Shown here in pieces: positions 10,309 through 44,079 of a stretch of DNA of 64,000 nt. The notes under the pieces were generated by a model. That model was not told the origin of the DNA. It did no database searches and was given only the letters and a program-made list of their open reading frames with translations. Numbering within the stretch: position 1 is the stretch's first letter; each line of letters opens with the position of its first letter. Position numbers and translations under genes: made by a program. Origin of the DNA: an uncultured Pseudomonadales bacterium (lineage in GTDB: Bacteria > Patescibacteriota > Microgenomatia > UBA1400 > Chazhemtobacteraceae); assembly GCA_964422035.1 (NCBI GenBank), contig CAYQZQ010000001.1, positions 441,013-505,012 of the forward strand, in the 5' to 3' direction.

Positions 10309-10309
10309 A

Positions 10310-18600: not shown

Positions 18601-18627
18601 AAAAGCCAGCTCTTTGAGCTGGCTTTT
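18601..18627 (-). terminator. Rho-independent terminator (bidirectional hairpin) downstream of tRNA-Glu
   Basis: AAAAGCCAGCTC-TTTG-AGCTGGCTTTT: a perfect 9-bp GC-rich stem flanked by A and T runs on both sides. Confidence 0.65.
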
Positions 18628-18635
18628 AATTATTG

Positions 18636-18710
18636 TGACCCCACCGGGATTCGAACCCGGGTTACCAGGATGAGAACCTGGCGTCCTAGACCAGACTAGA
18701 CGATGGGGCC
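18636..18710 (-). tRNA. tRNA-Glu (anticodon CTC)
   Basis: Reverse complement is GGCCCCATCGTCTAGTCTGGTCTAGGACGCCAGGTTCTCATCCTGGTAACCCGGGTTCGAATCCCGGTGGGGTCA. Acceptor GGCCCCA pairs with TGGGGTC. Anticodon stem CCAGG/CCTGG with loop TTCTCAT. T-arm CCGGG-TTCGAAT-CCCGG. Confidence 0.85.
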
Positions 18711-28681: not shown

Positions 28682-28693
28682 TATACTTGTCTT

Positions 28694-29697: not shown

Positions 29698-30178
29698 TAA
29701 GAAGATCTTTAAATTCTGATAAAACTTTTTTGGTGTTCCGCCATTGATTGGAGAAATTCAAGTATTGGGATAATTTTGCTTGAGGTACCCATTTTATCTT
29801 TTTTAGCTCTTCTTCTTGCAGGCTGAGATTATTTTTATCACCGGTAAACTTGACCAAGAATTGAGATTGAACTTGGCCGCGAAAGTATTTACCTTTTTGC
29901 TGGTATTTCTTTTCGATTACTTTTTGGGGCCAGTTGTATTGTTTTTTATATTTACTTTTTGTAAGAATTTTAAAAGAGTCGCTTCCCAACTCTTCTTTTA
30001 GTTCTCTTTTTAGGGCATCTTTGTCTGTTTCACCATCCTCTACTCCTCCACCGGGAAACTTCCAGTGATCTTTCGAGTAGCCGTTTTTTTGAACGAGGAG
30101 AAAGTTTTTTTGATCATCGAAGACAATACCTATTGTGCTTTGGCGAAAAGGGAGTTTGTCTAAATCAGGAATTGACAT
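29690..30178 (-). CDS. NUDIX hydrolase
   Basis: Nudix box GGGVEDGETDKDALKRELKEELG. Overlaps the downstream Nudix gene by 8 nt. Confidence 0.8.
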   Translation of the reverse strand: MSIPDLDKLPFRQSTIGIVFDDQKNFLLVQKNGYSKDHWKFPGGGVEDGETDKDALKRELKEELGSDSFKILTKSKYKKQYNWPQKVIEKKYQQKGKYFRGQVQSQFLVKFTGDKNNLSLQEEELKKIKWVPQAKLSQYLNFSNQWRNTKKVLSEFKDLLSG

Positions 30179-30206
30179 CAGTAGTATTTTATCAGTTTGA
30201 AACTGA

Positions 30207-30413
30207 TTATTTGCGGCCAGCTCGTAAATCTGGGGAAGCAGAAGGAGTGGTGGAGGCAGTTTCTCCAGAAGGCTGAAGTACTTTTCCTCCGCTGGCGAGT
30301 TGTTGTCTCATTAATTTCCACTCTCTTTGGCGCTCTTTTAATTTTTGAAGAGCAGCTTGTCTTTCCGATAAGGATACAGATGGTTGACCACGACCGATTA
30401 TTTCTTTGGACAT
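30207..30413 (-). CDS. Small basic hypothetical protein
   Basis: 68-aa ORF of uncertain coding status; the opposite strand also carries an ORF here. Confidence 0.25.
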   Translation of the reverse strand: MSKEIIGRGQPSVSLSERQAALQKLKERQREWKLMRQQLASGGKVLQPSGETASTTPSASPDLRAGRK

Positions 30414-30470
30414 TAAGTCTATTTAATCATATTGAATAATTACTCTGAAGTAATATCTAAATAAAAAAAT

Positions 30471-31064
30471 TCATATCTCTTTCCAGACGAAATACGTTGT
30501 TTTATCGGGTTGAATCTCTTTATATCCATCAGGGCTAAATAAAGGGCGAGGTAGTTGAAGATAATAAAAATAACCGTCATAGTGAGTAAGTAGACCAGGA
30601 TAGCTCATGGATTCTCGCTTAATTTTTCGTTGATCGATTTTTTGAGGATTTATTAGTTTGAGGTCATGTTCTGACCAAAGACGGCCGATTTCTTCTTTGA
30701 TTGCTCTGACAACTGCTTGATTTGGTTCCTCGTGAAGATGGATTTTTTCCTTAACAGCACCTTTAAACTCAGAACGGTGGCGAGTACGCTGATTGAGCTT
30801 GCCCTCATTGAATACTTGTCGATCTTCTACTAGTCTTAATTTTTTATCCATCATTTCAACTTCTACATTAACTTGTATAAATTTAAGTTTTCTAATTAAT
30901 CTGCCGTTTTCTTGAATAAGCTGGCTGTCTTGGCGTTTGATCTCTCTATATAGGTGCTTAACTGTTTTGGCCTTATCTTGCCCCCAGGTATCGATGGGAA
31001 TATCGTGAGCTGAAAGAAATGACTCAAGGTGAGTCGGGGGCAAGGTAAAAAGTTTTTCTTTCAT
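30471..31064 (-). CDS. Hypothetical protein (possible degenerate Nudix-like fold)
   Basis: 197 aa. EPNQAVVRAIKEEIG weakly resembles a Nudix box. Adjacent to the two Nudix genes. Confidence 0.4.
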   Translation of the reverse strand: MKEKLFTLPPTHLESFLSAHDIPIDTWGQDKAKTVKHLYREIKRQDSQLIQENGRLIRKLKFIQVNVEVEMMDKKLRLVEDRQVFNEGKLNQRTRHRSEFKGAVKEKIHLHEEPNQAVVRAIKEEIGRLWSEHDLKLINPQKIDQRKIKRESMSYPGLLTHYDGYFYYLQLPRPLFSPDGYKEIQPDKTTYFVWKEI

Positions 31065-31066
31065 AG

Positions 31067-31327
31067 TTATCCAACAAGATTTGATTTTTGAGGAGGAAGC
31101 ACAGAAGGATTATTGTTTTCTTCTTTGTCTTTTCTTTTTTGCTCAATTAGTTTTTCAAGTGTTTTTTGCTGTTGTTTTTGATATTCTTCTTTGTCTACTT
31201 CTTGGAAGTTTTCTTTACCAGCAATATCTTTGAATTGCTCTGGATTGTAGACAGGAATAACGACACCGTGAGAGTTTTTGAAGTAGGAAACTTTGAAGTG
31301 GTTTGGTTGCTCTTTTTTTAAGGTCAT
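31067..31327 (-). CDS. Hypothetical protein
   Basis: 86-aa charged ORF with a coupled stop/start to the upstream gene. Confidence 0.35.
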   Translation of the reverse strand: MTLKKEQPNHFKVSYFKNSHGVVIPVYNPEQFKDIAGKENFQEVDKEEYQKQQQKTLEKLIEQKRKDKEENNNPSVLPPQKSNLVG

Positions 31328-31645
31328 AAATTAAGGGCGGATGTGCATAATTTATTTGACAAGCACTTGATCATCACTCATTGCATACACTTTATACATG
31401 AACCGATAGATGGCAGTCAAGACAACTAGATTGCTTAGGAAAGCATTTCTTTTCTATCAATCTTCATCGAAGAAAATCTATTTTTGTTCGGTTTAAGTTG
31501 GTAAAAATCCATATCACCTGTTTTATTATTAGAATTAATCAAAACTACCTCTCTAAAAGGGAACTTATGATTATTTAACCAATCTACTACTTCTCTTAGT
31601 TGAATTTTTATAAAAGGCCTTGTTGCTGGTCATTTCTGGACGACG

Positions 31646-31690
31646 AGGTTAAGGTTCCAATGTTTTTGGGGAAATCAAGAGTTTTGTAGG
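31646..31690. repeat. Copy of the tRNA-Gln downstream flank (aggttaaggttccaatgtttttggggaaatcaagagttttgtagg)
   Basis: About 85% identical to 43907..43958, which lies immediately downstream of tRNA-Gln. Confidence 0.55.
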
Positions 31691-31700
31691 GTGTATGTTC

Positions 31701-31760
31701 TGGTTGAGCAGGCAGGTCTCGAACCTAATCGTTCCATAAAATGAGACAAATGGGACAGTA
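31701..31760 (-). repeat. tRNA 3'-half-like pseudo-fragment A (T-arm, acceptor 3' strand and CCA; no 5' half)
   Basis: Reverse complement reads ...GATTAGGTTCGAGACCTGCCTGCTCAACCA, i.e. a GGTTCGAGACC T-loop and a CTGCTCA-A-CCA 3' end. No complementary 5' acceptor strand is nearby. Confidence 0.5.
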
Positions 31761-31784
31761 TAAAAAAAGGGTAATCTGCATACT

Positions 31785-33683
31785 TTGTTTGGCTTTTTTG
31801 AAATTTGTTCTGTTGGAACTTTATTAACTCAATATATAAGCTATAATTCAACTAAGGAAATAACTATGGCGGAAAAGTCCCCTCCCCAATCATCACATGC
31901 GAAAGATATAGAGCACTTAGACAATCTCGTTCAAAGAGCCAGTACAAAAAAAGAGAATGAACCCAAACGCAAAAAGAGTGTTGTAGTTGTGGGTTCTACC
32001 TACTTTCCCAACTTTGGAGATAAAAATGAAAATATCCCTGACAATATAAGGGGCAATCTAGTATTAGAAAGTTTAAAGAAACTAAACAATGAAGGTATCG
32101 ACGTGTGTGTAGTCGATGGTAGTAGCTCCGAAGCTTTTGTGGAAAAAGTAAAAGAAATAAATCCAAAACGTTTTAGCGAAGGAGGTGTGAGTAGAGAACC
32201 TGCTGATATACATGATTTTATCAACACTCTAGAGGTTTCTGAAGAGGCAAGTAAAAAGGGGGAAGACATCCCTGGAATCATATGGTTTGTTGAACAACAG
32301 GAAGAGGGCTATAGCCAAGCAAGGGTTGAGGTAATAAAAAGCGTTACGGATGTTGTAACAGGCTCTGTAGATCACGAAGCCATTTTTCAAATGGAGTTAG
32401 AGAAAACTCCTTTGGTCGGCGAGATAGAAAAAACAATCAAACCGATTGTAGAGGGACGGGCAGATATAGTTATCCCAGATCGTGGCATAAGGGTTAAGGA
32501 TTTAGGAGATGATCGGGACGATTTCCGTAATTATCCAAGATTTCAAGCCGTTTCTGAGAGAAAAGCAAATCTCCTCATACACCAGATGCTTGTAGAAGCA
32601 GGACTAAGGGGGGCTGAAGACTCTGTGCTAGATCTATTCGGGGGGACTAGGGCAATCAAAGATAAGCCAGACCTTAGAAGATTATTTGGCGAAACCTTTA
32701 AAATACCAGAAGATAGTTCCTTTTGGGGAAAAATTAAACCAGAAGCTTATTCTAACGCCGTATACTTTCCTGTCTATATTGCTCTTGCACTGGGCCGAAA
32801 GGTAGATTCTGTACCAATTGATTTCTCCTATCCAAAGAGTCAAACAGCACTAGAGGCACAGGATGAAAGTTATAAAGAGAAAAGACAAGAGCAATTCAAT
32901 GATATCGTAGGAGGCTCAAAATTATTAATAGACTTCTTGGGTAAAAAATTGAAAAAAGTGAAACTCGCAGAAAAAGTTCTTGATACAAAAAGGGTCCTAA
33001 ATTATCTTAGAAAAAACTCTGTGATTGAACTTGAGGAATTGCAATGGGAAGAAAAAAACCAATTTAGTGAAGAATTACATTACGACAAAGCAGATTTACT
33101 TTCCATACTTGAAAAGATAGGGCAAGGCGAAAAGATTGTTGAGCAACTTGACGATGCACTTGCTTCCTATCTTTCTAATTTCGACGCTGGTCACTCTTTT
33201 TTGAATTGGGATGAGTTTAAACAAGTACGAAAAAGGATGAATCTTTTGAAAAAGGGAGTTAATCTCTTTGGAAAAGAAAAAGAGGCTGAAAAAATTTATG
33301 AAAAATATAGAGATCAAATACTCAACAATCTATATAATACAACGCTTATTTTTTATTTATTGAGAAACTCTGGTGCATCTAGAAATTTAGACATTGCCTC
33401 TTTCTTTGCTGAATTTGTCGAGGTTTCAAAAACGGACTACTCCATAGCGGTGCTTTTTGGCACTTCAGACGACGCAAAGCTAGACGAGCTAAATAGTTTG
33501 ACAAAAAAATTTAACTTAACTGCAGGGGAAAAAAGACAAATAATAGTAGGGCTATCAAGACAGGTAATAATAAAGAAGCCGGAAACAGATAAGAAAGAAC
33601 TTATTGATGATTTAGGAGAGATTTTTGAAATTCCTCCTGAGGAGTTATCAGTAATTAGTAAAAGAGTGTTAGAAATAAGCTAA
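31785..33683 (+). CDS. Large hypothetical protein (possible N-terminal GT-A-like nucleotide-sugar transferase fold; likely start at MAEKSPP, 31866)
   Basis: 632-aa ORF. VVVVGSTYFPNF...LESLKKLNNEGIDVCVVDGSSSE resembles the GT-A N-terminal pattern. The rest is unrecognised. Flanked by fragments A and B. Confidence 0.45.
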   Translation: MFGFFEICSVGTLLTQYISYNSTKEITMAEKSPPQSSHAKDIEHLDNLVQRASTKKENEPKRKKSVVVVGSTYFPNFGDKNENIPDNIRGNLVLESLKKLNNEGIDVCVVDGSSSEAFVEKVKEINPKRFSEGGVSREPADIHDFINTLEVSEEASKKGEDIPGIIWFVEQQEEGYSQARVEVIKSVTDVVTGSVDHEAIFQMELEKTPLVGEIEKTIKPIVEGRADIVIPDRGIRVKDLGDDRDDFRNYPRFQAVSERKANLLIHQMLVEAGLRGAEDSVLDLFGGTRAIKDKPDLRRLFGETFKIPEDSSFWGKIKPEAYSNAVYFPVYIALALGRKVDSVPIDFSYPKSQTALEAQDESYKEKRQEQFNDIVGGSKLLIDFLGKKLKKVKLAEKVLDTKRVLNYLRKNSVIELEELQWEEKNQFSEELHYDKADLLSILEKIGQGEKIVEQLDDALASYLSNFDAGHSFLNWDEFKQVRKRMNLLKKGVNLFGKEKEAEKIYEKYRDQILNNLYNTTLIFYLLRNSGASRNLDIASFFAEFVEVSKTDYSIAVLFGTSDDAKLDELNSLTKKFNLTAGEKRQIIVGLSRQVIIKKPETDKKELIDDLGEIFEIPPEELSVISKRVLEIS

Positions 33684-33686
33684 AAC

Positions 33687-33736
33687 GTCTGAGCAGGTAG
33701 GTCTCGAACCTACTAATCCCATAACTGGACAGTGTA
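33687..33736 (-). repeat. tRNA 3'-half-like pseudo-fragment B (direct repeat of fragment A)
   Basis: Reverse complement is ...GATTAGTAGGTTCGAGACCTACCTGCTCAGAC, with a perfect T-arm GTAGG-TTCGAGA-CCTAC. It shares gagcaggNaggtctcgaacct plus the aatc..ccataa..ggacagt tail with fragment A. Starts 4 nt after the stop of the 632-aa gene. Confidence 0.5.
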
Positions 33737-33881
33737 TTTGAAGTTTGAAATTTCAAACATAATGAGCTTATGAGCCTCAAGCCCAGGCTCTATAAATGTT
33801 GTAATAATAAATCAATTGTTCACCTTAGTAAATTTTGTATATGATTATTTTAATGGACAAAGAAAATAAATATTAACTTTT

Positions 33882-34439
33882 ATGGTTGATATTACACTTA
33901 TTACAAGAAACGCCAAAAAGGTGCAATCAGCACAAGTTGCCATGAGCAGTCATGGTATAAAAGTTTTGCAAGAGAAGCTTGATACTCCTGAAATTCAGGA
34001 CAAAAATATTGATAAAGTTGCAGAATTTTCGGCGAAATTTGCCGCCGATGAATTAGGAAAGGCAGTTATAAAAGTTGATGTCGGTTTTGAAATAGAAGCC
34101 CTGAGCGGCTTCCCAGGACCTTTCTCTAAATTTATCAATGAGTGGCTACCTCCTGAAAAAGTATTGAGGCTTCTTGAGGGTGAGGAAAACAGAAATGCAA
34201 AATTTATTGATGTTGTTGCATTTAGCGAACCAGGAAAAGACCCTGTAAGTTTTAGATCAGAGACAATCGGTAAAATCTCATATCAATCGTCAGGTAATAA
34301 TGGTTGGGGCATTGACAAAATATTTATCCCAAAAGGATACAAGTGCACACTGGCAAGCCTAGAAAACGATAAGCGGGTAAAAGTTTGGAATACTGATCAT
34401 TGGAAGAAGCTTGCCCATTTTATTAAAAAAGAGAGATAA
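33882..34439 (+). CDS. Ham1/ITPase-family non-canonical purine NTP pyrophosphatase
   Basis: ITLITRNAKKVQSAQ and DVGFEIEALSGFPGPFSKF match the RdgB/HAM1 motifs. Confidence 0.75.
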   Translation: MVDITLITRNAKKVQSAQVAMSSHGIKVLQEKLDTPEIQDKNIDKVAEFSAKFAADELGKAVIKVDVGFEIEALSGFPGPFSKFINEWLPPEKVLRLLEGEENRNAKFIDVVAFSEPGKDPVSFRSETIGKISYQSSGNNGWGIDKIFIPKGYKCTLASLENDKRVKVWNTDHWKKLAHFIKKER

Positions 34440-34626: not shown

Positions 34627-35763
34627 CTAGGAGGCTTCCCAAGTGGAGTTTTCTATCAAATCTAAAGTATTTTTTGCATTTTGTTTAGCTTTTTTAGCAC
34701 CAGTTTTTAATATACCCGATACATAGTCTGGATCTTGAGTGATTTTTTGGCGCTTTTCTTGAAATTCATGAAGGAAATTTTTAGTTATCTTGGTTAATAT
34801 TTGTTTAAAATCACCCATAACTTTCTCACCCGACATATGTTTCTGAACTATTTGATCTATCATGTTTTTATCTTCTTCTGTTCTGGCAAGCTCTTGAGCC
34901 AAGAGAATATGACTTTTAAGTGTTTCGTTCATCTTCCCAGCAAAAGCTGTCTGTGCGCGTTTAATCTTATCTGCTGCTTCTTCAGGACTATCGGTCAGGA
35001 ATATTGCCCCTTTCGGGTTGGTTTTGCTCATCTTACCGTCACCTCTCAGTGACTGTAGCCTTAACGGAGCCTCAACTTCTAAAACTTTAGGTGTGGGCAA
35101 AATTTCTCCATATTGATTGTTGAATCTTCTAATCAACTTCCTGGTTACTTCCATGTGAGCTAGTTGGTCTTCACCTACAGGCACCTTGTGAGCTCTTTGA
35201 AGAATAATGTCTGATGCCATCATTACAGGATAAAGTAAAAGTAGGGCATTTGCAGTTTCAGGTCTTGAGTTTTTTTTGAGCTTATCTTTTAAAGTCGGAA
35301 CTCTTAGTAATTCAGAGGCACTAATGTGCCTAGATAGCCACGTCATTAAGGTAGTAACTTCTGGAGTAATCTCAGATTGAACAAATATATCAGTCCTTTC
35401 GGGATCAAGCCCCAGGGCAAGATAATCCGCTACTACTTCATTTGTGAATTTGCGAGCCTGATGAGGCTCATGATCTGTTAAGGCGTGTAGGTCCGCAACA
35501 AAAACCATGATCTCTTTCTCCTCATCCTGGAGTTCTACTATGGGCTTTACCGCACCTAAATAATTAGCAACGGTTAAATCGCCCGTTGGGCGAATACCCG
35601 TGAATATATCAACCATATAATCTTTTCTTTCCTTTTTTTCAGGACTATTTAGCATATCTTGATTCTTTAGTGTTTCAGACTTGTTTATAGTATCTTTTTC
35701 AGATTCTCTCATAGTTTGAGTAATTAAATCAAATCTGAGTACAAATGTCAATTTAGATTTCAT
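34627..35763 (-). CDS. trpS: Tryptophanyl-tRNA synthetase (full-length, with a ~60-aa N-terminal extension)
   Basis: TGIRPTGDLTVANYLGA (HIGH region), VFVADLHALT, and the KMSKS-type motif GDGKMSKTNPKG. Followed by the anticodon-binding helical domain. Confidence 0.85.
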   Translation of the reverse strand: MKSKLTFVLRFDLITQTMRESEKDTINKSETLKNQDMLNSPEKKERKDYMVDIFTGIRPTGDLTVANYLGAVKPIVELQDEEKEIMVFVADLHALTDHEPHQARKFTNEVVADYLALGLDPERTDIFVQSEITPEVTTLMTWLSRHISASELLRVPTLKDKLKKNSRPETANALLLLYPVMMASDIILQRAHKVPVGEDQLAHMEVTRKLIRRFNNQYGEILPTPKVLEVEAPLRLQSLRGDGKMSKTNPKGAIFLTDSPEEAADKIKRAQTAFAGKMNETLKSHILLAQELARTEEDKNMIDQIVQKHMSGEKVMGDFKQILTKITKNFLHEFQEKRQKITQDPDYVSGILKTGAKKAKQNAKNTLDLIENSTWEAS

Positions 35764-35803
35764 TATTAGAGGATAATCTGCATCAATGATATAATTTAAA
35801 AAA

Positions 35804-36856
35804 ATGGATAGACAAAAACAAGAAAAGATATCATCTGCAATTAAGCAAGTAATCGCTGGGAAAGATTTGGATAAAAAGAATTTGAAGGAAGTTTTTAAGA
35901 TTATATTGGAGCATGGGCTAGGAGATGCAAACGATGTTTCTTTTGGGGCTTTATTTGCAGCCCTACAGACTAAAGGTCCGACAGATAATGAGTTACTTGG
36001 CTTAATTGAGATTGTATTGAATTATGACAGAGAAAAAATTCCATACTCAGGGAATTCAAGCAATCTTTGTGGGGTAGTAGGAAGTGGTAAGGATGATATA
36101 AAAACTTTCAACATCAGCACTTGTGCGGCTTTTGTGGCCTCAGCAGCTGGAGTAAAAATGGTCAAAAATGGATCTCGCAGTGAATCTAGTATCGCTGGAA
36201 CCACGGACGTGCTTGAAGAACTAGGAGTAAAAATAAATCTTGAACCGGAAGAAGTTATTGAGGCTTTAGAAAAATATGGTATTACTTTTTGTGATGCAGG
36301 ACCTTATTTTCCCAGGATGAGTAGAGAATACGTTGGAAAATTTCTGTTTCCTCATCCACTGAGTTACACCTTATCCATAGCAAGTGGTTTAAGTTTTGAG
36401 AGGGTATTGTTTGGTGTTTCCTTTCCCGAAACTGAAAGGGTTGCTCATATTTTAAGAGAGCTTGGGTATCATGATTTCATGGTAGTTTCGGGTGAAGATG
36501 AAAAAGGTAGACGCTTCGATGAAATTTCAAATATCGGACCAACAAAGATCAGTGAGTATAAAAAGAATAAATTAAAAACTTATACTGCCAGTCCAGAAGA
36601 TTTTGGCATTAAATCCTCTGAGCATAAATACATTAAGGAAGGGGAGTCCGTAAAAGAGAACGCTAAAAAAATGCTAGATATTCTTAAAAATCAGACTGTC
36701 GCTCCAACGAGAGATGTTGTCTTGATAAACGCAGGAGCCCTCATTTATATAGCTGATAAAGCAGAAAGTATAAGAGAGGGCGTAAAAATGGCAAAAGAGG
36801 CCATAGAAAGCGGTGGGGCATTTGAGAAGTTCAAAAACTTGAGAGACTACAAATGA
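35804..36856 (+). CDS. TrpD-like protein (anthranilate phosphoribosyltransferase / glycosyl transferase family 3)
   Basis: CGVVGSGKDDIKTFNISTCAAFVASAAGVKMVKNGSRSESSIAGTTDVLEELGVK aligns with TrpD ..GTGGDG.NT.NISTAAAFV.AA.G..V.KHGNRS.SS..GSAD.LEA.G. The PRPP loop is altered (GSGKD instead of GTGGD). Confidence 0.75.
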   Translation: MDRQKQEKISSAIKQVIAGKDLDKKNLKEVFKIILEHGLGDANDVSFGALFAALQTKGPTDNELLGLIEIVLNYDREKIPYSGNSSNLCGVVGSGKDDIKTFNISTCAAFVASAAGVKMVKNGSRSESSIAGTTDVLEELGVKINLEPEEVIEALEKYGITFCDAGPYFPRMSREYVGKFLFPHPLSYTLSIASGLSFERVLFGVSFPETERVAHILRELGYHDFMVVSGEDEKGRRFDEISNIGPTKISEYKKNKLKTYTASPEDFGIKSSEHKYIKEGESVKENAKKMLDILKNQTVAPTRDVVLINAGALIYIADKAESIREGVKMAKEAIESGGAFEKFKNLRDYK

Positions 36857-38169
36857 ATAAAACAGTGAATCAAGGCTCCAAGTATACCGATTCTAAAATT
36901 GATTATATGGAGAGGGGTGAGTTGGAAAAATTACAATTAAAAAGGATAAAAGAAACGCTAAGGTGGGCATCTGAAAATTCTAGATTTTATCGTGAGTTGT
37001 ATAAAGAAATTTCAATAAAGACAATAAATAGTTTCTCAGATTTTAGAAAGCTACCTTTTACAACCAAAAAAGACTTGGTGAATAACTATCCTTTCGGAAA
37101 TCTGTGTGTGCCTCAAAAAGAAGTGGTTGAAGTTCATTTTTCTTCAGGTACAACAAATAGACCAGTTCCCACTTACATGACTCAAGAGGATTTATTATTG
37201 AGTAATGAGGCATTAGCGAGAACTTGGTATATGCAGGGGGTATGTTCGAATACCGTTTTTGGTATGCTTGCTTCTTATGGTCTATTTTCAGCTGGATTGC
37301 TGAATCATTATGCCATACAAAAGTTAGGGGCGTTTGTAATTCCTATTAGCTCATCTTCTACCGATAAGACAATAGGTTTGCTAAAAGACTATAGCATTAA
37401 TGCCACAGCAGCTGTAACTAGTTATTACTTATACCTTGTTAATAGGATAAGAGAATTAGGTTACTCTAAGGACAATTTTAATTTAGAGATTGCAATAGCA
37501 GGCGGAGAACCTTTTACTGAAAATCAACGAGACTATATTGAAAAGAATTTGGGGACTGAGTTGCTTGATCAATATGGTATTTCTGAGATTAATACCGGGT
37601 TGGCGGGAGAGTGTAAGCTCAAAAATGGATTACATATTTTAGCAGATTATGCATATCCAGAGATTGTTGATACTGAAACTGGGGAAGTCTGCGAGGAGGG
37701 GAAGTCTGGAGAATTAGTATTGACGACTCTTGCTAAAAGAGCTTCACCTCTTATTCGCTATAAGACAGGTGATATGGCGAGCATTACTTACAAGAAGTGT
37801 GGATGTGGAAGAACCTTACCTCGTATCTCAAAAATCATGAGAAGAAAAGGTGGTACATTGTTTTATAAAGGTAGGAAAATAGAGCGAGAATTTGTAATTA
37901 GTTTTATGGAAGATCAAGATGATTATCTGGATCCATACATTTGGAAGCTAATTTTGTCTGGCAATATGGGTAATCAGAAAATGTTTTTTAGGGTTTTGGT
38001 AAAAGGAGATAATAACCAAAAGGATTGCCTGAGAAAGCTTGAGATGGAATTTAAAAAGAAGGCAGGGATAAATGTTAAAGCTAAATTATTTTCTGAATCT
38101 GAATTAAAAAGCTTGGAAGAAGATAAGTTAAAACATTTTGTTGACAGACGCAAGGAGGTTGGTAAATAA
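36853..38169 (+). CDS. Adenylate-forming ligase of the PaaK / F390-synthetase / CapK family
   Basis: HFSSGTTNRPVPTYMTQEDL (the AMP-binding SSGTTG.P motif in PaaK-like spacing). 438 aa with the ANL two-domain layout. Confidence 0.75.
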   Translation: MNKTVNQGSKYTDSKIDYMERGELEKLQLKRIKETLRWASENSRFYRELYKEISIKTINSFSDFRKLPFTTKKDLVNNYPFGNLCVPQKEVVEVHFSSGTTNRPVPTYMTQEDLLLSNEALARTWYMQGVCSNTVFGMLASYGLFSAGLLNHYAIQKLGAFVIPISSSSTDKTIGLLKDYSINATAAVTSYYLYLVNRIRELGYSKDNFNLEIAIAGGEPFTENQRDYIEKNLGTELLDQYGISEINTGLAGECKLKNGLHILADYAYPEIVDTETGEVCEEGKSGELVLTTLAKRASPLIRYKTGDMASITYKKCGCGRTLPRISKIMRRKGGTLFYKGRKIEREFVISFMEDQDDYLDPYIWKLILSGNMGNQKMFFRVLVKGDNNQKDCLRKLEMEFKKKAGINVKAKLFSESELKSLEEDKLKHFVDRRKEVGK

Positions 38170-38170
38170 A

Positions 38171-39511
38171 ATGAGAAAGATATACACAATATTAGACGGA
38201 GAGAAATTGGCCGGGGATAGAGAGAAAGCAGTGATAAGCCCTTACTCTCTTAATCAGGTGGCCAATATTAATTATGCAAAATTAGAGAAAATTGAAAGAA
38301 AAAGAGCAAAAAAACATGATATGGCTTATCTGCGAAGAATACTACAAGATTTTGCAGATTATCTATCATCAGAATCCATTAAGTTAGCCAGAGTTGCCGC
38401 AGAAGAAACAGGGAGTCCAATAAAATATCACAAAAAAGACATTGAAGCTGTAATTGAATATATTGAGCATTTATGTGATGGTTTTGTATTTCAAGAAAGC
38501 CCATATGTTCATGAGTCTAAGGGAAAAGTCTTAATTCTGTTGTCGGCTAACGAGCCAGTTGTTTTAGGCACTATTCCATTATTAACGGCATTGATGACTG
38601 GGAACACTGTTTATCTTAAGCCATCTTCAAGGTCTCCATCTTATGCTTATTTAATCGTCAATAAGTTGCATAAATTAGGACTAGAAAGTGATCTTCTGCA
38701 TTTATTGCTTCCAGAAAAACAGGATATAGAGACCATCATTCAGAGACAAACTGTTGATTGTGTATTATCTTTTGGACATCACAAAACAAATAGAATATTA
38801 GGAGCTATTGCAGCTAAAGCAGGGGTCGAATTTATTCCAGAAAATGACGGAAACTGTTGGGCTTATGTTGATGAAGATTTTCCTTTTTGTAATAAGAAAT
38901 TGATATCAACAATAAAAAGGTCCGTGGTTAAGCACAATGGCCAGATGTGTGATTCATTACGCGGTTTATTAATTCACAATGAAGTTTTCGATGATATTTC
39001 CAAGGGAATAATAGAAAATATCAAAGATGTTAATATGGGTAATCCGTTAGATGTTTCGAGTGATGTAGGAGCTTTGCTAGTTGGTACAGCATCTAAGATC
39101 CCTGATCTTATAGAAGAAAGTAGTGGAAAGACCTATAAATACCATGTGGAAAACAATGTGGTGTCTCCTACTGTTGTTTTAGGTCCTCGTGCTGAATCGA
39201 CGTTAGTTGAAGATAGTGTTTTTGCGCCCGTTTTATGGATAAAGTCTGTTTCTGGACCACAAGAGGTAATTGAGTTATATAAGAGACATAATCACCATGG
39301 GTTATGCTTTTCAATATTCTCTAATGATGAATCCAGCATAGAGAAGTTAAGTAGAAACATCTCTGTGGGAAGGATAAATGTGAATTGCTCCCCGGTAGAA
39401 ATAGATGTTATGAGTCCGTGGGGAGGACTTAAAACGAGTGGTTATGGTGGGCCTACAAGTTGGTTTGACAGATTTACCAATAGAAAGGTAATAAACCATG
39501 GACAATTTTGA
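38171..39511 (+). CDS. Aldehyde dehydrogenase-superfamily protein (ProA / acylating ALDH-like); the ORF track gives 38138
   Basis: SFGHHKTNRILGAIAAKAGVEFIPENDGNCWAYVDED aligns with the ALDH FTGS..VG..I..AA...LELGGK motif. NGQMCDSLRGLLIH matches the catalytic-Cys region (compare ProA CNA.E.LLVH). An AAGGAGG SD precedes the ATG at 38171. Confidence 0.6.
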   Translation: MRKIYTILDGEKLAGDREKAVISPYSLNQVANINYAKLEKIERKRAKKHDMAYLRRILQDFADYLSSESIKLARVAAEETGSPIKYHKKDIEAVIEYIEHLCDGFVFQESPYVHESKGKVLILLSANEPVVLGTIPLLTALMTGNTVYLKPSSRSPSYAYLIVNKLHKLGLESDLLHLLLPEKQDIETIIQRQTVDCVLSFGHHKTNRILGAIAAKAGVEFIPENDGNCWAYVDEDFPFCNKKLISTIKRSVVKHNGQMCDSLRGLLIHNEVFDDISKGIIENIKDVNMGNPLDVSSDVGALLVGTASKIPDLIEESSGKTYKYHVENNVVSPTVVLGPRAESTLVEDSVFAPVLWIKSVSGPQEVIELYKRHNHHGLCFSIFSNDESSIEKLSRNISVGRINVNCSPVEIDVMSPWGGLKTSGYGGPTSWFDRFTNRKVINHGQF

Positions 39512-40154
39512 AATCGTAATAATAACTGGAGTTTCGGCAGATGGTAAGGTTACTCTTGGAGAAGGAGTAAGTAGCAAGAAGTTTGCGGCTTTGTTGTCTC
39601 CTGAGATGTCAGAACCGCTTCTAGAATTGAGACGGTGGGCGGATGTAATTTTAGTTGGGAGAAAAACAGTGAAGATAGACAACCCCTCTTTAAAATCCAA
39701 TGAAAATTCAGGACTAATTAGGGCAGTTATAGATAGAGAGATGCGCTTATCTTTAGACAAGAATATATTTGATGGGTCTGCGAGGACTCTAATTATTACA
39801 ACAAGCACAAACAAAGAGAAGGAGAGGCAGCTTAGACAAAAAGGTGTAGAAATTATAAGGATTTCACAAGAAGATTTTTTACCAGAATTAAAAAATGAGT
39901 TTGAGGAGCGTGGACTTTACAAGATAATGGTTGAAGGTGGAGGTAATTTGAATTATTTTATGTTAAAAAATCATTTTGTTGATAAAATCATCATCGCAAC
40001 TTTTCCTTTTATTGTAGGAGGAAAAGATACCCCAACTATAGTAGACGGAGAAAGCATAGCAACTATGAAAGAGGCAATAAAATTGAAATTAATTAGATCG
40101 TACTTGGTTGATAAAAATATGGTAGTAAATGAATTTGGGGTAGAAAATGACTAA
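39498..40154 (+). CDS. RibD C-terminal-type (dihydrofolate-reductase-like) reductase domain protein
   Basis: IVIITGVSADGKVTL...ADVILVGRKTV...KIMVEGGGNL matches the RibD_C / ArfC-like reductase layout. Confidence 0.65.
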   Translation: MDNFEIVIITGVSADGKVTLGEGVSSKKFAALLSPEMSEPLLELRRWADVILVGRKTVKIDNPSLKSNENSGLIRAVIDREMRLSLDKNIFDGSARTLIITTSTNKEKERQLRQKGVEIIRISQEDFLPELKNEFEERGLYKIMVEGGGNLNYFMLKNHFVDKIIIATFPFIVGGKDTPTIVDGESIATMKEAIKLKLIRSYLVDKNMVVNEFGVEND

Positions 40155-41040
40155 ACTTAAGAAAATTAAGCTGAAAAAATATTCTTCTTTAGATGATAAA
40201 TATTTTGCAAAAAGGCAATTATTATCAAAATCCTTAAATTTATCAAAAAAAGAACTTGGAGAGGTTTTTTCTGGTAAGGAAAAATACAAAATTGTTACAG
40301 GTTTTGGTCTAACAGGTTATTTTCATCTAGGAAGTAAATTGCTTCTAAACGAGGTAAAATTTTTTGCTGATCTTGGATTAGAAGCACAAATATTGTTGAG
40401 TGGATATGATACTAGAGTAAGAGGAACCACTAATTCCAAAAGCCCAGTACATATACAAAAAAGTATGTTGCAAATTATAGACAAACTAGACAAAAATGAA
40501 AAGATTAAAGTAGAGGAAAGATCCCCTGGAGTAGATTCCGAGATTTTCCAATCGATTAATGATTTAGTGAACAAAGATGATTTTGTTGAGTTTTATGGAC
40601 AAGAAATGGGTAAGAGTGGTAGAGATGCTTTGGTAGATATGGCAGCATCAATTATTGAAATTGATAATCAAAAGAAGATAGTTATATTGCTAGGGGTTGA
40701 TGAACTGGGTGAAGCTCTTTTCATCAGTCATGTTTATAAAAAGCTTGAGATGTCACCACCAGGTTTTTTATTCAATCATGTTGTACTCGGATATGACTCC
40801 AACAAAATGGGCAAGTCGCGTCCGGAATTTAGTTTAGTTATTTCATCGTCTGCAGAGGAAGAGATTAAGAAGGTTGAAAAATATCTTCGAAAAGATGGAG
40901 ATCACCGGAAATGTCCTTGTTATTATATAAATTTGTTCTCAAAGTATGGAGATCCCGAAATATCTACATGTAAGCGCGTGCATAAAAAATTACCTACGAT
41001 TATTAAAAAAGAATGTAAGGAGTTCGTGTCAAGCGACTAA
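40147..41040 (+). CDS. Truncated class-I aminoacyl-tRNA-synthetase-like paralog (TrpRS/TyrRS catalytic domain only, with a Cys-rich C-terminal tail)
   Basis: HIGH-like VTGFGLTGYFHLGS, KMSKS-like NKMGKSRPEF. No anticodon-binding domain. C-terminus HRKCPCYY..STCKRVH. 297 aa. Confidence 0.6.
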   Translation: MTKLKKIKLKKYSSLDDKYFAKRQLLSKSLNLSKKELGEVFSGKEKYKIVTGFGLTGYFHLGSKLLLNEVKFFADLGLEAQILLSGYDTRVRGTTNSKSPVHIQKSMLQIIDKLDKNEKIKVEERSPGVDSEIFQSINDLVNKDDFVEFYGQEMGKSGRDALVDMAASIIEIDNQKKIVILLGVDELGEALFISHVYKKLEMSPPGFLFNHVVLGYDSNKMGKSRPEFSLVISSSAEEEIKKVEKYLRKDGDHRKCPCYYINLFSKYGDPEISTCKRVHKKLPTIIKKECKEFVSSD

Positions 41041-41043
41041 AAT

Positions 41044-41748
41044 ATGAAGACATTAAAGCAAGCCTATAACGATTTTTTTGATCAGAAGTTTAACGTAGAT
41101 GTGGAGCCAGTTTATGACAATAAGGTTCAAAGTATATTAAAGTATGTTGATCATAATAAGCAGGTGCTAGACGTAGGGTGTTTGACAGGTTACTTGGGGT
41201 ATTTTTGTTTAAAAAAGAAAAACAGTACTAAGGTGGTGGGAATTGATTTTGTCGAAAACGCTTTAAAGCATGCTCGTAAGCTAGGTATTGATGCACGCTA
41301 TGGTAACGTCGAAAATGGCAGTTTGCCAATTCAGGATTCTGAGCGCTTTGACGTAATAATAGTTTCTGAGATAATTGAGCATTTGGTTGATCCTCTTGTT
41401 GTGTTGGAAAAACTCAAAAAGGTGCTCAAGAAAAACGGAAAGATAATAATTTCTACACCAAATATGGCTTATTTTCAATATAGATTTGAACTGCTAATGG
41501 GAAAGTTGCCAGATTTTTGTGAGTTTCGTGGTAAATATCCAGAAAGACCCTACAATTTTCAACACAAAACTTTATTTACTAAAAAAGTACTGGTCGAGAC
41601 ATTGGAAATGGCAGAATTAAAGCTTAAGAAACTTGATAGTCATAGCACATATAAGAGTAAGTTGGAGAAGTTTTTTGATCCTTTTGAAAAACTATTTCCA
41701 GGTGTGTTTGTTAAGAATATGATTGCAGTTGTTACTAAAAAGGATTAA
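41044..41748 (+). CDS. Class I SAM-dependent methyltransferase
   Basis: Motif I VLDVGCLTGYLG, motif post-I VGIDF, and DVIIVSEIIEHL. Confidence 0.8.
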   Translation: MKTLKQAYNDFFDQKFNVDVEPVYDNKVQSILKYVDHNKQVLDVGCLTGYLGYFCLKKKNSTKVVGIDFVENALKHARKLGIDARYGNVENGSLPIQDSERFDVIIVSEIIEHLVDPLVVLEKLKKVLKKNGKIIISTPNMAYFQYRFELLMGKLPDFCEFRGKYPERPYNFQHKTLFTKKVLVETLEMAELKLKKLDSHSTYKSKLEKFFDPFEKLFPGVFVKNMIAVVTKKD

Positions 41749-41754
41749 TGTTCA

Positions 41755-42633
41755 ATGAAGGCAGATAACAAGAAAATTCGAGAGTATGTACACAGAATAA
41801 AAGGTGATAAATCGAAGGTAAAAAGACTTCCAACAGAAAGAGAAAGTTATGTTTACTCGATTGAAGATCGTTTGATCTATAAAATTATGCCTGAGTCTCT
41901 TAACAGAAGTACTTATCAGGAGATTAACAGACTGCTTGAAGACAGCGGGGTGCCTTTTCCTAATTTAATTGATGAATGGAAAGAGGGAGGATTTCATCAC
42001 TTAATCCAGGAGAAGAAGTCTGGGAAAAAGTTGTCGGCAATGAATAACAAAGAAAAGGTAAAATATTATCCCGAAGTCGCAAGCATATTATATAAAATAC
42101 ATATGATTAAAATTAATTCAGTAGGGCCTATTGAAGAAGCTGGTGGTAAATTTTCAAATTGGGCAAGTTATATACGAAATTTTAAAAAATTTTCAGAGAA
42201 CCATGGGGATGTGGTTCCAGAATATGTTACAAAAGATGATTACGAAATAATATTAAGGGCTGTAGAAGATTTGGCACGGAGAAAAAATAATCCATGTTTG
42301 GTTCACGGTGATTTTATGGAAAAAAATATTTTAGTCGAGGGAGGGAAAGTAACTGCCATACTGGATTGGGATGTTGCAATAGCTGGTGATCGGATCATGG
42401 ATTTTGCTACTTTTCGTCTTTGGGATGGAATATTTATTAACAACTCACTAATTGAAGAATATTACCCTGAGAAAAAACTATTTGAACAAGACAAATTTGA
42501 GTTCTATTGTAATCGTTATCAGCTGTATTCAGGATTTATTACACTTGACTTTTTAATTAGTAACGAAGAGCAAGACTTGTTTAATTTACCAGAAAAAATT
42601 AACAGAATCTGCTCTAAAATACAAAAAAGGTGA
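41755..42633 (+). CDS. Aminoglycoside-phosphotransferase (APH)-family small-molecule kinase
   Basis: Catalytic loop LVHGDFMEKNILV and the ILDWDVAIAGDRIMDFA motif. Confidence 0.7.
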   Translation: MKADNKKIREYVHRIKGDKSKVKRLPTERESYVYSIEDRLIYKIMPESLNRSTYQEINRLLEDSGVPFPNLIDEWKEGGFHHLIQEKKSGKKLSAMNNKEKVKYYPEVASILYKIHMIKINSVGPIEEAGGKFSNWASYIRNFKKFSENHGDVVPEYVTKDDYEIILRAVEDLARRKNNPCLVHGDFMEKNILVEGGKVTAILDWDVAIAGDRIMDFATFRLWDGIFINNSLIEEYYPEKKLFEQDKFEFYCNRYQLYSGFITLDFLISNEEQDLFNLPEKINRICSKIQKR

Positions 42634-43871
42634 AGATACTATTCGTTCCTTTAAGCGAAACAGCGCTTGCTCATATTGTCAGGTGCTTAGTCATTGCGCT
42701 CGAAGCTAAAAAAGAGGGCCATGAGGTGCTTTTTACAAGCATAAGGGGGAGAACTGACTTGATTGATGGATTTGATATTCCTGTGTATAAAAATGGGATT
42801 AAACTTCTAAAAAATACAGAGGGTGAGATCGACAAAATATCACAAATCAGGAGATACGAGATTGAAGCAGCTAGATATTTTCATCCGGATGTGATTATAA
42901 ATGATCCAGTAATAGCCGGTTCATTTGCTGCAAGAAAGTTAAACTTACCATTGGTCTTAGTAACAAACTCGACACTTTTGCCGAATTATTCTGGATATTA
43001 TGGATATTCCAAGGTAGGAAAGGATTTGACTAGTAATTTCGGATACTTTGGTAATTATTACCCACGCAAGGTTATGTTTCCAAAAATTTTGAAAGTTTTT
43101 GACAGGCTTGATATCAAAAATATACCAAGACATTATAATAAATTATTTGATAGAAATTTAAAGATAATACCAAGCATCCCCCTACTTGATCCTCTAGATA
43201 ATCCAGACAGCCTAACACATTATGTAGGGCCCCTTTTGCTTGAAAACCACTGGAAACCTGATAGTGAGTTGGTTAATTTTGTAAATAAGGTAAGGGGTCC
43301 TCTGGTTGCAGTAAATTTTGGAGGGTCAGTATTTTTAGAAAATACTTATCATAGAACAATTGAAGTATTACTTTCTTGTGGCTATAAAATTGTAGTCGGA
43401 ATTGGCCCGAATTTTGATATTGAAAAATTCCAGAATAAATATGGAAAGGATAATAATTTGCTTATTAGACAATATACCCCAAATGAATATTTGGCAGAAA
43501 GAGCAAAATTTTTCATAATTTCCGGTGGACACGGAACACTAACTCAGACTTTATTGAATGGTTGTCCTGTTTTATGCATACCTCATAACGTGGACCAGAG
43601 CACATTTGCTCAGAGGGTTGAAGAATTAGGTTGTGGAATTAATGTGATGAGGATTGATAAACCGATGAAGGATCTTGATTATTGGAGGAAAAAAGCGAGC
43701 AATCTATCTAAAAATAAGTTATTCGATGCGATTAAGAAACTAGAGGTAAACGTTGAGAATTTTAGAACTAATTGTCGTCAAGTCGGTGATCAACTGTCTA
43801 AACATTCGAATCCTGCGAAAAAAATTTTGGATCTCACCGAAGAGTTTGTCGACCAAAAGCAACGCTTGTAA
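42630..43871 (+). CDS. GT1-family UDP-glycosyltransferase (MGT / UGT-like)
   Basis: C-terminal donor-binding signature FIISGGHGTLTQTLLNGCPVLCIPHNVDQSTFAQRVEELGCGI. Confidence 0.75.
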   Translation: MKILFVPLSETALAHIVRCLVIALEAKKEGHEVLFTSIRGRTDLIDGFDIPVYKNGIKLLKNTEGEIDKISQIRRYEIEAARYFHPDVIINDPVIAGSFAARKLNLPLVLVTNSTLLPNYSGYYGYSKVGKDLTSNFGYFGNYYPRKVMFPKILKVFDRLDIKNIPRHYNKLFDRNLKIIPSIPLLDPLDNPDSLTHYVGPLLLENHWKPDSELVNFVNKVRGPLVAVNFGGSVFLENTYHRTIEVLLSCGYKIVVGIGPNFDIEKFQNKYGKDNNLLIRQYTPNEYLAERAKFFIISGGHGTLTQTLLNGCPVLCIPHNVDQSTFAQRVEELGCGINVMRIDKPMKDLDYWRKKASNLSKNKLFDAIKKLEVNVENFRTNCRQVGDQLSKHSNPAKKILDLTEEFVDQKQRL

Positions 43872-44005: not shown

Positions 44006-44079
44006 TGGTTGCCAGGCTAGGATTCGAACCTAGATTGACGGTGTCAGAGACCGCAGTCCTACCATTAGACGACCTGGCA
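44006..44079 (-). tRNA. tRNA-Gln (anticodon CTG)
   Basis: Reverse complement is TGCCAGGTCGTCTAATGGTAGGACTGCGGTCTCTGACACCGTCAATCTAGGTTCGAATCCTAGCCTGGCAACCA. Acceptor TGCCAGG/CCTGGCA. Anticodon stem GCGGT/ACCGT with loop CTCTGAC. T-arm CTAGG-TTCGAAT-CCTAG. CCA is encoded. Confidence 0.85.

Follow-up and report, generated by a model that had tools for sequence, protein, structure and literature searches.

A conserved TrpD-like, RibD_C and TrpRS-type gene cassette of ultra-small prokaryotes and its candidate tryptophan-related product

Eight plus-strand open reading frames (ORFs) form an operon at positions 35804–43871 of a 64,000-nucleotide stretch of contig CAYQZQ010000001.1 (GenBank assembly GCA_964422035.1, positions 441,013 to 505,012 of the forward strand; hereafter the window), deposited under an uncultured Pseudomonadales bacterium and placed by GTDB in the Patescibacteriota (Microgenomatia, UBA1400, Chazhemtobacteraceae). 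Next to the operon, and divergent from it, lies trpS, a gene for a tryptophanyl-tRNA synthetase (TrpRS). We favour, at about even odds (a probability near 0.5), the explanation that the operon, together with the adjacent trpS, is one instance of a biosynthetic cassette that is conserved and laterally mobile among ultra-small prokaryotes, and the product of which would be made by the scheme proposed below. That product is probably a tryptophan-related sugar-amine metabolite. A first-pass annotation of the window, made from the sequence alone, had described eight tightly packed genes of the families discussed here, and the ORF coordinates, identical for all eight, together with Pfam and NCBIfam matches bear this description out. 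The trpS next door, which its coordinates omitted, was absent from that annotation, as were the TrpRS origin of the small aminoacyl-tRNA synthetase (aaRS) homologue in the operon, the restriction of the system to candidate phyla radiation (CPR) bacteria, DPANN archaea and gut bacteria, and the optional character of the three tailoring genes.

The arrangement of the genes recurs elsewhere and goes far beyond chance. Genome and metagenome scans, dereplicated to 34 loci of at least 3.9 kb each, place beside the TrpD-like gene a class-Ic aaRS (TrpRS)-type gene in 29 of 34 loci (51 genes), a RibD_C reductase gene in 26, an aldehyde dehydrogenase (ALDH) gene in 21 and a PaaK-like ligase gene in 16, with many of the partner absences falling at contig ends. 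Of full-length TrpRS genes the 34 loci hold 16 of bacterial type and 16 of archaeal type; at least 23 loci have one within 10 kb, often two, and related loci carry one to four TrpRS genes or else a PrnB homologue. A link to tryptophan is thus just as constant as the TrpD-like and RibD_C pairing. Conserved co-occurrence in other genomes, on which the first-pass annotation had staked its reading of the operon as a pathway, is found at these 34 loci, and the full set of eight genes exists in two loci besides the window: in L008 (GCA_964443495.1), with the methyltransferase, kinase and glycosyltransferase divergent and trpS directly upstream, and in L093, with the gene order of the window. In L001 a trpS gene stands divergent to TrpD-like, PaaK-like, ALDH, RibD_C and small aaRS-like genes, a five-gene core syntenic with that of the window, such that a TrpRS gene adjoins the cassette in L001 and L008 as well. 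The view that the operon serves no standard housekeeping function also holds, as we find a conserved pathway and no other trp or rib genes among the window ORFs scanned. The TrpD-like subfamily is rare, occurring in 11 of 185,579 species-representative genomes, which are labelled as Saccharibacteria, uncultured 'Bacilli' from the rabbit gut, Pacearchaeota, Nanoarchaeota, Micrarchaeota and a few others; the loci come from CPR bacteria, DPANN archaea and gut bacteria with small genomes.

The architecture of the cassette varies with its host. CPR loci encode the TrpD-like enzyme, PaaK, an ALDH of about 450 residues, RibD_C and the shortened TrpRS paralogue (mini-TrpRS), with or without a methyltransferase–kinase–glycosyltransferase module. 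DPANN loci hold RibD_C, PaaK, mini-TrpRS (322 residues), TrpD-like and a short ALDH (350 residues); on the flanks of these genes are a bacterial-type TrpRS, a fusion of a haloacid dehalogenase (HAD) phosphatase with a phosphoribosyltransferase (PRT), and an archaeal-type TrpRS. In L018 (3539–11858), L067, L069, L074 and L077, all from DPANN, the bacterial-type TrpRS beside the cassette has 326–333 residues, the fusion partner is a type-I PRT, and in loci of the L018 type the archaeal-type TrpRS sits on the opposite side from the bacterial-type one. Loci of the gut 'Bacilli' and Saccharibacteria combine a nucleotidyltransferase-like protein, the TrpD-like enzyme, RibD_C, a full-length TrpRS and a pyridoxal phosphate (PLP)-dependent decarboxylase, and lack PaaK and ALDH. 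In L005 (8551–9984), L013, L014, L056 and L058–L060, the place of PaaK and ALDH is taken by these two proteins, the nucleotidyltransferase-like one being of the pol-beta type (310–477 residues) and the decarboxylase of group II, nearest to histidine and tyrosine decarboxylase models. Two full TrpRS genes, 46% identical, are found in L005, and one of bacterial and one of archaeal type in L018. Loci of the Micrarchaeota type hold up to three full archaeal TrpRS genes, a mini form of 250 residues, RibD_C and a zinc-dependent alcohol dehydrogenase (Zn-ADH). In L019 (4204–16987), on a 928-kb contig of a Micrarchaeota metagenome-assembled genome (MAG), 13 kb encompass three full archaeal-type TrpRS genes and the 250-residue form, along with two TrpD-like genes, RibD_C, Zn-ADH, a HisC-like aminotransferase and an EamA exporter.

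A few loci have no TrpRS-like genes. In L079 and L085 (1400–2428), TyrRS-like genes (family f13) flank the cassette in place of TrpRS-like genes, with the L085 protein scoring 190 bits on the archaeal TyrRS model PRK08560, below its cut-off, which hints at a tyrosine variant of the system. No aaRS-like gene is present in L006 or L054; in L006 (14266–17621, minus strand) its place is taken by a gene for a true homologue of PrnB (93 bits to PDB 2v7i), the enzyme that turns tryptophan into an aromatic amine, and this replacement speaks for the explanation that we favour. The same locus holds an unannotated 337-residue protein, ruled out as a hidden aaRS-like protein by an hhalign probability of 0.1, and a GT4 glycosyltransferase, and upstream of these are genes for prephenate dehydrogenase, prephenate dehydratase, chorismate mutase and aminotransferases.

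The first gene of the operon (35804–36856) encodes a TrpD-like phosphoribosyltransferase with the two-domain fold of Glycos_trans_3N (PF02885, 33.8 bits) and Glycos_transf_3 (PF00591, 165.8 bits), a score of 243.1 bits on the trpD model TIGR01245 (cut-off 199.05) and PDB 9ucw as its best structural match (182 bits). Its subfamily comprises about 100 protein clusters of 350–380 residues that score 243–531 bits at 39–68% identity, while canonical TrpDs, nearest among them those of Methanocaldococcus, reach at most 202 bits and lie below a clear score gap. In a single alignment of 49 subfamily members and six canonical TrpDs, the fold as well as the NxST, Lys and Asp-Glu metal motifs are common to both groups. 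They part at the positions where canonical enzymes have GTGGD, KHGNR and the Arg of GxRT: the subfamily has conserved GSGKD and KNGSR instead, and the Arg aligns to a Phe beside a three-residue deletion. We take the His and Asn of KHGN and the Arg of GxRT to be anthranilate-binding residues, the Arg contacting the carboxylate, from the structures of the Sulfolobus solfataricus and Mycobacterium tuberculosis enzymes. With the motifs for 5-phosphoribosyl-1-pyrophosphate (PRPP) and metal retained and the anthranilate residues replaced, the donor site looks intact and the acceptor site looks remodelled, having lost its carboxylate ligands. The altered PRPP loop reported in the first-pass annotation is thus a conserved trait of the whole subfamily, and the anthranilate-binding residues, which it had marked for checking, prove to be replaced. 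Context separates the two groups as well: the subfamily adjoins RibD_C and TrpRS-type genes, not trp operons, and no trp operon context was found among the window ORFs scanned or the recurrent families of the 34 loci.

A peptide-pattern scan (I[VI]GSG[KR]D[DET]xK or GTTD[VI][LFM]Ex[LF]G) additionally drew in 33 TrpD genes of Rhodococcus and other Mycobacteriales (L021–L053). These are about 30% identical and have none of the partner genes nearby; they were set aside and may constitute a separate TrpD variant.

The RibD_C-type reductase (39498–40154), presumably NADPH-dependent, matches PF01872 with 115.5 bits. Its best model is the archaeal TIGR01508 (137.6 bits, cut-off 186.45), followed by TIGR00227 (124.6 bits, cut-off 150.15), and its best structural match is 2azn, the Methanocaldococcus jannaschii protein MJ0671, with 6p8c also matched. 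On the question of placement relative to ArfC that the first-pass annotation had raised, the archaeal model comes out best, yet the score stays below its cut-off. The archaeal ArfC/MJ0671 ribosylamine reductases, which share the RibD_C fold, are the nearest sequence relatives, and their NADPH-dependent reduction of an N-ribosylamine 5'-phosphate to an N-ribityl amine is plausibly the chemistry of the operon enzyme too. Unlike ArfC, the operon enzyme falls below the family cut-off, has no rib genes among the window ORFs scanned or the recurrent families of the related loci, and is partnered by a TrpRS paralogue; the enzyme acting upstream is GTP cyclohydrolase in the riboflavin route, whereas here it would be the TrpD-like enzyme. 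The step from N-ribosyl to N-ribityl that the first-pass annotation had proposed fits the coupling of the TrpD-like and RibD_C genes, the most constant feature of the family, and its chemistry we read from that pairing.

The fifth gene (40147–41040) encodes the mini-TrpRS, a tRNA-synt_1b protein of 297 residues that scores 16.3 bits on TIGR00233 against a cut-off of 176.75 and carries an HLGS motif of the HIGH type and a KMGKS motif of the KMSKS type. Its family is small, with 42 matches in 1.84 billion representative proteins, ten of them below 1e-30, and a word-indexed search of 5.8 billion proteins found only one relative, on JGI contigs with the L001 layout. Across 17 family members, G52, G57, H60, G62, D185, E186, M221 and K223 are invariant, and with them the motifs of the ATP site and the acidic residue (GxDE) to which the amino group binds in TrpRS. 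The best structural match of the family profile is the TrpRS of Aeropyrum pernix (3a04, E = 6.5e-45), with other TrpRS and TyrRS structures far behind, and an AF2 model (pLDDT 85.5, pTM 0.86) likewise has 3a04 as its top Foldseek match (TMq 0.75). The protein aligns to residues 16–339 of the 372-residue A. pernix enzyme, and its model has only three short helices past KMGKS, leaving it without a full-length anticodon-binding domain. Given this alignment, the first-pass description of a strictly catalytic-domain-only aaRS needs correcting to a shortened archaeal-type TrpRS. A recent duplication of trpS as the source of the mini-TrpRS was ruled out by the lack of BLAST similarity between the two and by the archaeal-type affinity of the mini-TrpRS. 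Four cysteines (C256, C258, C275 and C290) are kept in the closest homologue and align with a Cys-rich C-terminal segment of A. pernix TrpRS, which makes a metal or an Fe-S cluster a possible ligand in this family.

One of the two other loci with the full set, L093, whose operon is otherwise identical, encodes a natural fusion of RibD_C with the mini-TrpRS (P0123), and we regard this fusion as the strongest single indication that the two enzymes share one substrate molecule. MshC and GluQRS/YadB offer precedents, being aaRS paralogues that place amino acids on non-tRNA acceptors. AlaRS-like enzymes are reported to build aminoacyl-nucleoside antibiotics such as ascamycin (PMC12945691). In comparison with these systems, the mini-TrpRS is likewise an aaRS catalytic core, of class I and with its HIGH/KMSKS-type motifs conserved, that stands in a metabolic operon and has its tRNA-binding part reduced. 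It differs in descending from an archaeal-type TrpRS, where the others derive from CysRS, GluRS and AlaRS, in forming a tiny family of its own, and in having full-length TrpRS genes alongside.

Between the TrpD-like and RibD_C genes are two genes whose products may act on a single carbon. The first (36853–38169) encodes a PaaK/F390-family adenylate-forming ligase that stays far below the cut-offs of the haloarchaeal PaaK model (295.9 against 700 bits) and TIGR02155 (272.9 against 646.3); its best structural match, PaaK 4r1l (232 bits), covers only residues 9–343 of the N-domain, and its C-terminal domain has diverged from PaaK. The second (38138–39511, with a probable start at ATG 38171) encodes an ALDH-superfamily enzyme (Aldedh, 182 bits) with a weak Pfam match to LuxC (27.7 bits, cut-off 21) and matches to StyD-type models far below their cut-offs. 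No ProA model is among its matches, and the ProA-like label of the first-pass annotation is dropped. In the same annotation the two enzymes were taken to convert a carboxylate to an aldehyde. The pairing itself stands, since the two genes occur together in 16 loci, and may run in either direction. A general-base Glu is typical of hydrolytic, oxidising ALDHs, and both the catalytic Cys of NGQMC and the Glu of PENDGN are kept in 20 of 20 cluster ALDHs and invariant in the 19 that are cassette-linked, the short 350-residue DPANN forms included, a pattern that argues for a route from aldehyde through acid to acyl-adenylate at least as much as for one from carboxylate to aldehyde. By analogy, the LuxC match and the LuxE/LuxC precedent suggest the path from acid to aldehyde, and the Glu with the StyD/PaaK precedent suggests the opposite one. 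The StyD/FeaB–PaaK and LuxC/LuxE pairs resemble the operon in joining an ALDH thiol enzyme to an adenylate-forming ligase that handles one carbon; the operon enzymes differ from them in scoring far below the cut-offs and in lacking paa or lux context, no paa genes being found among the window ORFs scanned.

The last three genes form an optional tailoring module that is present together in three loci only. They encode a class-I S-adenosylmethionine-dependent methyltransferase (41044–41748), assigned by several Methyltransf Pfam matches, which has a 53% identical homologue in L008, another in L093 and one upstream in L001; an APH-fold small-molecule kinase (41755–42633; APH, 65 bits, and a weak Fructosamin_kin match), whose homologues in L008 and L093 adjoin the methyltransferase and glycosyltransferase genes; and a GT1 glycosyltransferase of the MGT/EryCIII-like kind (42630–43871, GTG start), assigned by EryCIII-like_C and Glyco_tran_28_C, which scores 63 bits on the MGT model TIGR01426, below its cut-off, and has a 33% identical homologue in L008 and another in L093.

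The gene families, motif changes, fusion, co-occurrence and phyletic distribution observed above lend themselves to a common scheme, the chemical steps, substrates and biological role of which we infer from family membership, motif conservation, fusion and co-occurrence. The TrpD-like enzyme would transfer the 5-phosphoribosyl group of PRPP to the nitrogen of an amine other than anthranilate, probably a neutral aromatic amine related to tryptophan. RibD_C would then reduce the resulting N-ribosylamine to a stable N-(5-phospho)ribityl amine. The mini-TrpRS would activate tryptophan or a close analogue with ATP and, independently of tRNA, move the activated amino acid onto the RibD_C product in the manner of MshC and GluQRS. 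The PaaK-like ligase and the ALDH may handle one carboxylate or aldehyde carbon of the precursor or scaffold, and the methyltransferase, APH-type kinase and GT1 glycosyltransferase would tailor or mask the product.

Several observations weigh against this scheme. The acceptor of the TrpD-like enzyme is a guess, because most loci encode no enzyme for making an aromatic amine, and the protein itself still scores above the TIGR01245 cut-off for trpD. Elsewhere the PaaK-like ligase and ALDH are swapped for the nucleotidyltransferase-like protein and PLP decarboxylase, or for Zn-ADH, replacements that fit no single chemical scheme yet. The need for as many as four TrpRS-type genes in one locus is unexplained, and the methyltransferase, kinase and glycosyltransferase are missing from most loci. 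Independence of the mini-TrpRS from tRNA is assumed from its shortened C-terminus alone.

The same genes could instead make an antimetabolite directed at TrpRS or translation, that is, a tryptophanyl pseudo-nucleotide mimicking Trp-AMP or the 3' end of Trp-tRNA, with the full-length TrpRS conferring immunity and the kinase and GT1 glycosyltransferase masking the product. The frequency of full-length TrpRS within 10 kb of the cassette (at least 23 of 34 loci), and the presence of both bacterial- and archaeal-type copies in loci of the L018 type, would be expected of such a system, given that producers of aaRS inhibitors hold a resistant aaRS copy in or near the biosynthetic cluster (PMC5388404, PMC9437257) and that aaRS-like enzymes take part in aminoacyl-nucleoside synthesis of the ascamycin type (PMC12945691). 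A patchy distribution suggesting lateral transfer, the resemblance of GT1 to macrolide-inactivating MGT and of the kinase to APH, and the EamA exporter in L019 point the same way. However, the window trpS is an ordinary Parcubacteria TrpRS and not a divergent paralogue, and trpS copy number in this host is seen only through the 64-kb window. A bacterial-type TrpRS would not be expected to serve archaeal tRNA(Trp) as an immunity copy, by the identity rules laid out in PMC5370408, and immunity would not call for as many as three TrpRS copies, the number in L019; the window operon also has no dedicated exporter. As the window trpS is typical of Parcubacteria and a bacterial-type TrpRS would be poor immunity in an archaeon, this role is weakened, and we consider it unlikely. 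Still less likely is its most specific form, in which an N-aryl-(phospho)ribitylamine 'pseudo-nucleotide' would carry tryptophan in ester or amide linkage, the product being a new class of metabolite and a mimic of Trp-AMP or of the tRNA(Trp) 3' end laterally shared among host-attached CPR and DPANN organisms, with the mini-TrpRS acting as a tRNA-independent ligase physically coupled to RibD_C, the product hitting TrpRS or translation in a host or competitor, and the linked full-length TrpRS providing immunity.

An improbable reading is that the cassette provides salvage of, or another route to, a cofactor with a ribityl-bearing heterocycle such as a lumazine, deazaflavin or flavin. In this sequence, to which we give equally little credence, an aminopyrimidine or aminobenzaldehyde base would be ribosylated by the TrpD-like enzyme and the product reduced by RibD_C, and an aromatic amino acid would supply the carbonyl with which the resulting ribitylamine condenses. 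The kinship of RibD_C with archaeal pyrimidine reductases of the riboflavin pathway (TIGR01508, 2azn, 6p8c) and a TrpD-like acceptor site without carboxylate-binding residues are in line with this route, as are the variable partners, each of which (ALDH, Zn-ADH and the Pyridoxal_deC family) has an aldehyde or an amine as substrate or product. Riboflavin synthesis includes a dephosphorylation step, of which the HAD phosphatase–PRT fusion of the DPANN loci may be reminiscent. Yet RibD_C falls below the riboflavin-reductase cut-off, no lumazine synthase, riboflavin synthase or CofG/H-type gene is seen in any locus, and one would look for a cofactor route throughout these lineages, whereas 11 of 185,579 species genomes have the subfamily. 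It also leaves no role for the TrpRS paralogue or for the linked full-length TrpRS.

We find it harder still to see the cassette as serving tryptophan supply or tRNA(Trp) charging, whether as a non-canonical route to Trp or Trp-tRNA or as a regulatory or stress back-up co-expressed with trpS. A lineage-typical trpS does adjoin the operon and shares a conserved divergent promoter region with it, the loci of gut bacteria hold a full TrpRS (344 bits) inside the operon, and TrpD homologues are by ancestry enzymes of the Trp pathway. The reading is moreover in keeping with the proposal of Mukai et al. for the extra TrpRS genes of CPR and DPANN organisms, which they tie to 'tryptophan metabolism and encoding' (PMC5370408). 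The operon is itself poor in Trp (0.52%, against about 1.2% in the 44–64 kb flank, by per-ORF counts), with no Trp residue at all in the TrpD-like, mini-TrpRS and methyltransferase proteins, but this may follow from low G+C. Indole ring closure in the Trp pathway requires a ketone that ribityl reduction destroys. No equivalents of TrpF, TrpC, TrpA or TrpB and no source of the alanyl side chain were found in any locus; neither tRNA(Trp) nor an unusual tRNA turned up in the window or the 13 related loci scanned, nor did a search reveal a T-box. Amino-acid synthesis would have no place for the three tailoring enzymes, and the rarity of the cassette speaks against a core supply function.

Chance adjacency of unrelated housekeeping genes (trpD, paaK, ALDH, ribD and others) is excluded, for although the TrpD-like protein passes the TIGR01245 cut-off and small CPR genomes pack unrelated genes tightly, the co-occurrence data contradict it, with synteny across bacteria and archaea, the RibD_C–mini-TrpRS fusion, TrpD motif changes peculiar to the subfamily, every other equivalog cut-off missed (the TrpD-like protein alone among the eight operon proteins passes one in NCBIfam) and no other trp, rib or paa genes near by among the window ORFs scanned.

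Further candidate roles were tried and rejected. A genetic-code expansion cassette combining an aaRS, biosynthesis genes and a tRNA was ruled out, as no tRNA(Trp) or suppressor tRNA was found in the window or in 13 related loci. A PADLOC scan ruled out a known anti-phage defence system, returning no match for seven of the eight operon proteins and a generic domain match (mad2) for the methyltransferase. An IMG/VR scan for carriage by phages gave no match. In the metagenomic contig L056, a few kilobases downstream of the cassette, the sequence at 6815–6898 (minus strand) matches the catalytic-domain RNA of group II introns (45 bits).

The cassette that we favour as a mobile biosynthetic unit appears to have an archaeal history. 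Its core enzymes have archaeal affinities, as judged from the best NCBIfam models, the Methanocaldococcus TrpD, the A. pernix TrpRS and M. jannaschii MJ0671. Because four core enzymes are archaeal-affine while the host trpS is Parcubacteria-typical, and because DPANN loci carry bacterial-type TrpRS, the data suggest an archaeal origin of the cassette and its transfer between DPANN and CPR organisms.

A literature search found no description of a cassette combining TrpD-like, RibD_C and TrpRS-type genes. The nearest account is that of Mukai et al. (2017, Life 7:8; PMC5370408), who reported extra, laterally transferred TrpRS-type genes clustered in CPR and DPANN organisms along with a small protein, ORF1, bearing HIGH/KMSKS-like motifs. 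The organisms and the clustering of surplus TrpRS-type genes are the same as in our loci. The operons of that study hold a tRNA(Trp, A73) and a full archaeal-type TrpRS-A, whereas the window has neither, the synthetase being absent by NCBIfam profiles of the window proteins; a text search of the paper found no mention of anthranilate or TrpD. L019 may be the kind of locus in which Mukai et al. named TrpRS-A2, TrpRS-A-like and ORF1, and the source of L017 is a Rifle (RBG) groundwater MAG, part of a data set that was used in that paper too. What is new here is the conserved combination of known enzyme families, among them a TrpD subfamily and a TrpRS-derived family that are themselves new, in organisms with which such pathways have not been associated.

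Much of microbial diversity belongs to CPR and DPANN organisms, which are thought to be almost without biosynthetic capacity and to have little specialised metabolism. If our explanation is correct, these bacteria and archaea would exchange a conserved route of five to eight genes, and few other pathways dedicated to a small molecule are known from them; their dealings with their hosts could be affected by it. The route would further define a functional TrpD subfamily whose acceptor has changed, a class of substrates new to RibD_C reductases and a family of enzymes newly derived from TrpRS, one member of which is fused to a reductase. The cassette supplies a genomic context for the surplus TrpRS genes reported in CPR and DPANN in 2017, and as its components are all small soluble enzymes, it is directly testable by reconstitution or heterologous expression.

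The eight genes of the operon are packed with junctions of -4, -32, -14, -8, +3, +6 and -4 nt in gene order. The value of -32 nt between the PaaK-like and ALDH genes stems from taking the earliest TTG as the ALDH start; this apparent overlap vanishes if the ATG at 38171, which begins 2 nt past the PaaK stop, is taken instead, an arrangement also found in the L001 homologue. On the opposite strand, a 155-residue ORF (39347–39814) runs across the ALDH/RibD_C junction and is most likely spurious.

The adjacent trpS (34627–35763, minus strand) encodes a bacterial-type TrpRS that scores 257.5 bits on TIGR00233 (cut-off 176.75) and likely starts at ATG 35712, giving 361 residues. It is 58–65% identical to thousands of TrpRS from Parcubacteria/Paceibacterota, with Falkowbacteria also among its nearest named relatives, so it is typical of its lineage. 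Between this start and the operon ATG is a 91-bp spacer (35713–35803) that reads as a divergent promoter region serving both strands. Facing trpS, on the minus strand, are the boxes TTGACA (35751–35746) and TTTAAT (35728–35723), 17 nt apart, and facing the operon is the extended -10 box TGATATAAT (35787–35795, plus strand), 8 nt upstream of the operon ATG. The spacer is 81% identical to its L001 equivalent over 135 columns with both boxes kept, and from their match to consensus the boxes probably act as promoters. No Shine-Dalgarno sequence is evident before the operon ATG (35787–35803), and the arrangement suggests that the operon transcript is leaderless or nearly so. A search for control by a T-box or riboswitch gave no match.

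Flanking genes in the window are bacterial, encoding Lon, RelA/SpoT, RecJ, the CCA-adding enzyme, SecDF and Lgt, as well as several aaRSs and a D-Ala-D-Ala carboxypeptidase. Together with the relatives of the adjacent TrpRS, they identify the host as a CPR (Patescibacteria) bacterium. The G+C content at third codon positions is 0.25–0.34 over about 29.7–43.9 kb, trpS included, against about 0.36–0.54 at 18.7–29.7 and 44–64 kb; this compositional shift is real and suggests that the block is an island. Directly 3' of the operon lies a tRNA-Gln(CTG) gene (44006–44079, minus strand). It was rejected as an att integration site, as no tRNA-derived repeat of 13 nt or more exists elsewhere in the window, and the sole 13-nt match derives from the spacer upstream of the tRNA. 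Just upstream of trpS, the region 28151–34439 carries housekeeping genes of nucleotide and RNA metabolism, encoding a LigT-like 2'-5' RNA ligase, an NYN-domain nuclease, two NUDIX hydrolases and a Ham1/RdgB ITPase, and two ORFs there, of 632 (31785–33683) and 197 residues (30471–31064), have no Pfam or NCBIfam match. A second low-GC block spans positions 1–18710 and ends at a tRNA-Glu(CTC) gene (18635–18710); it holds two LplA/B-type lipoate-ligase-like genes and genes for a DUF169 protein, a radical-SAM protein, an ABC-2 transporter, a Sulf_transp permease, an ArsP permease, an acyltransferase and a two-component system, accessory genes that are unusual in a CPR genome.

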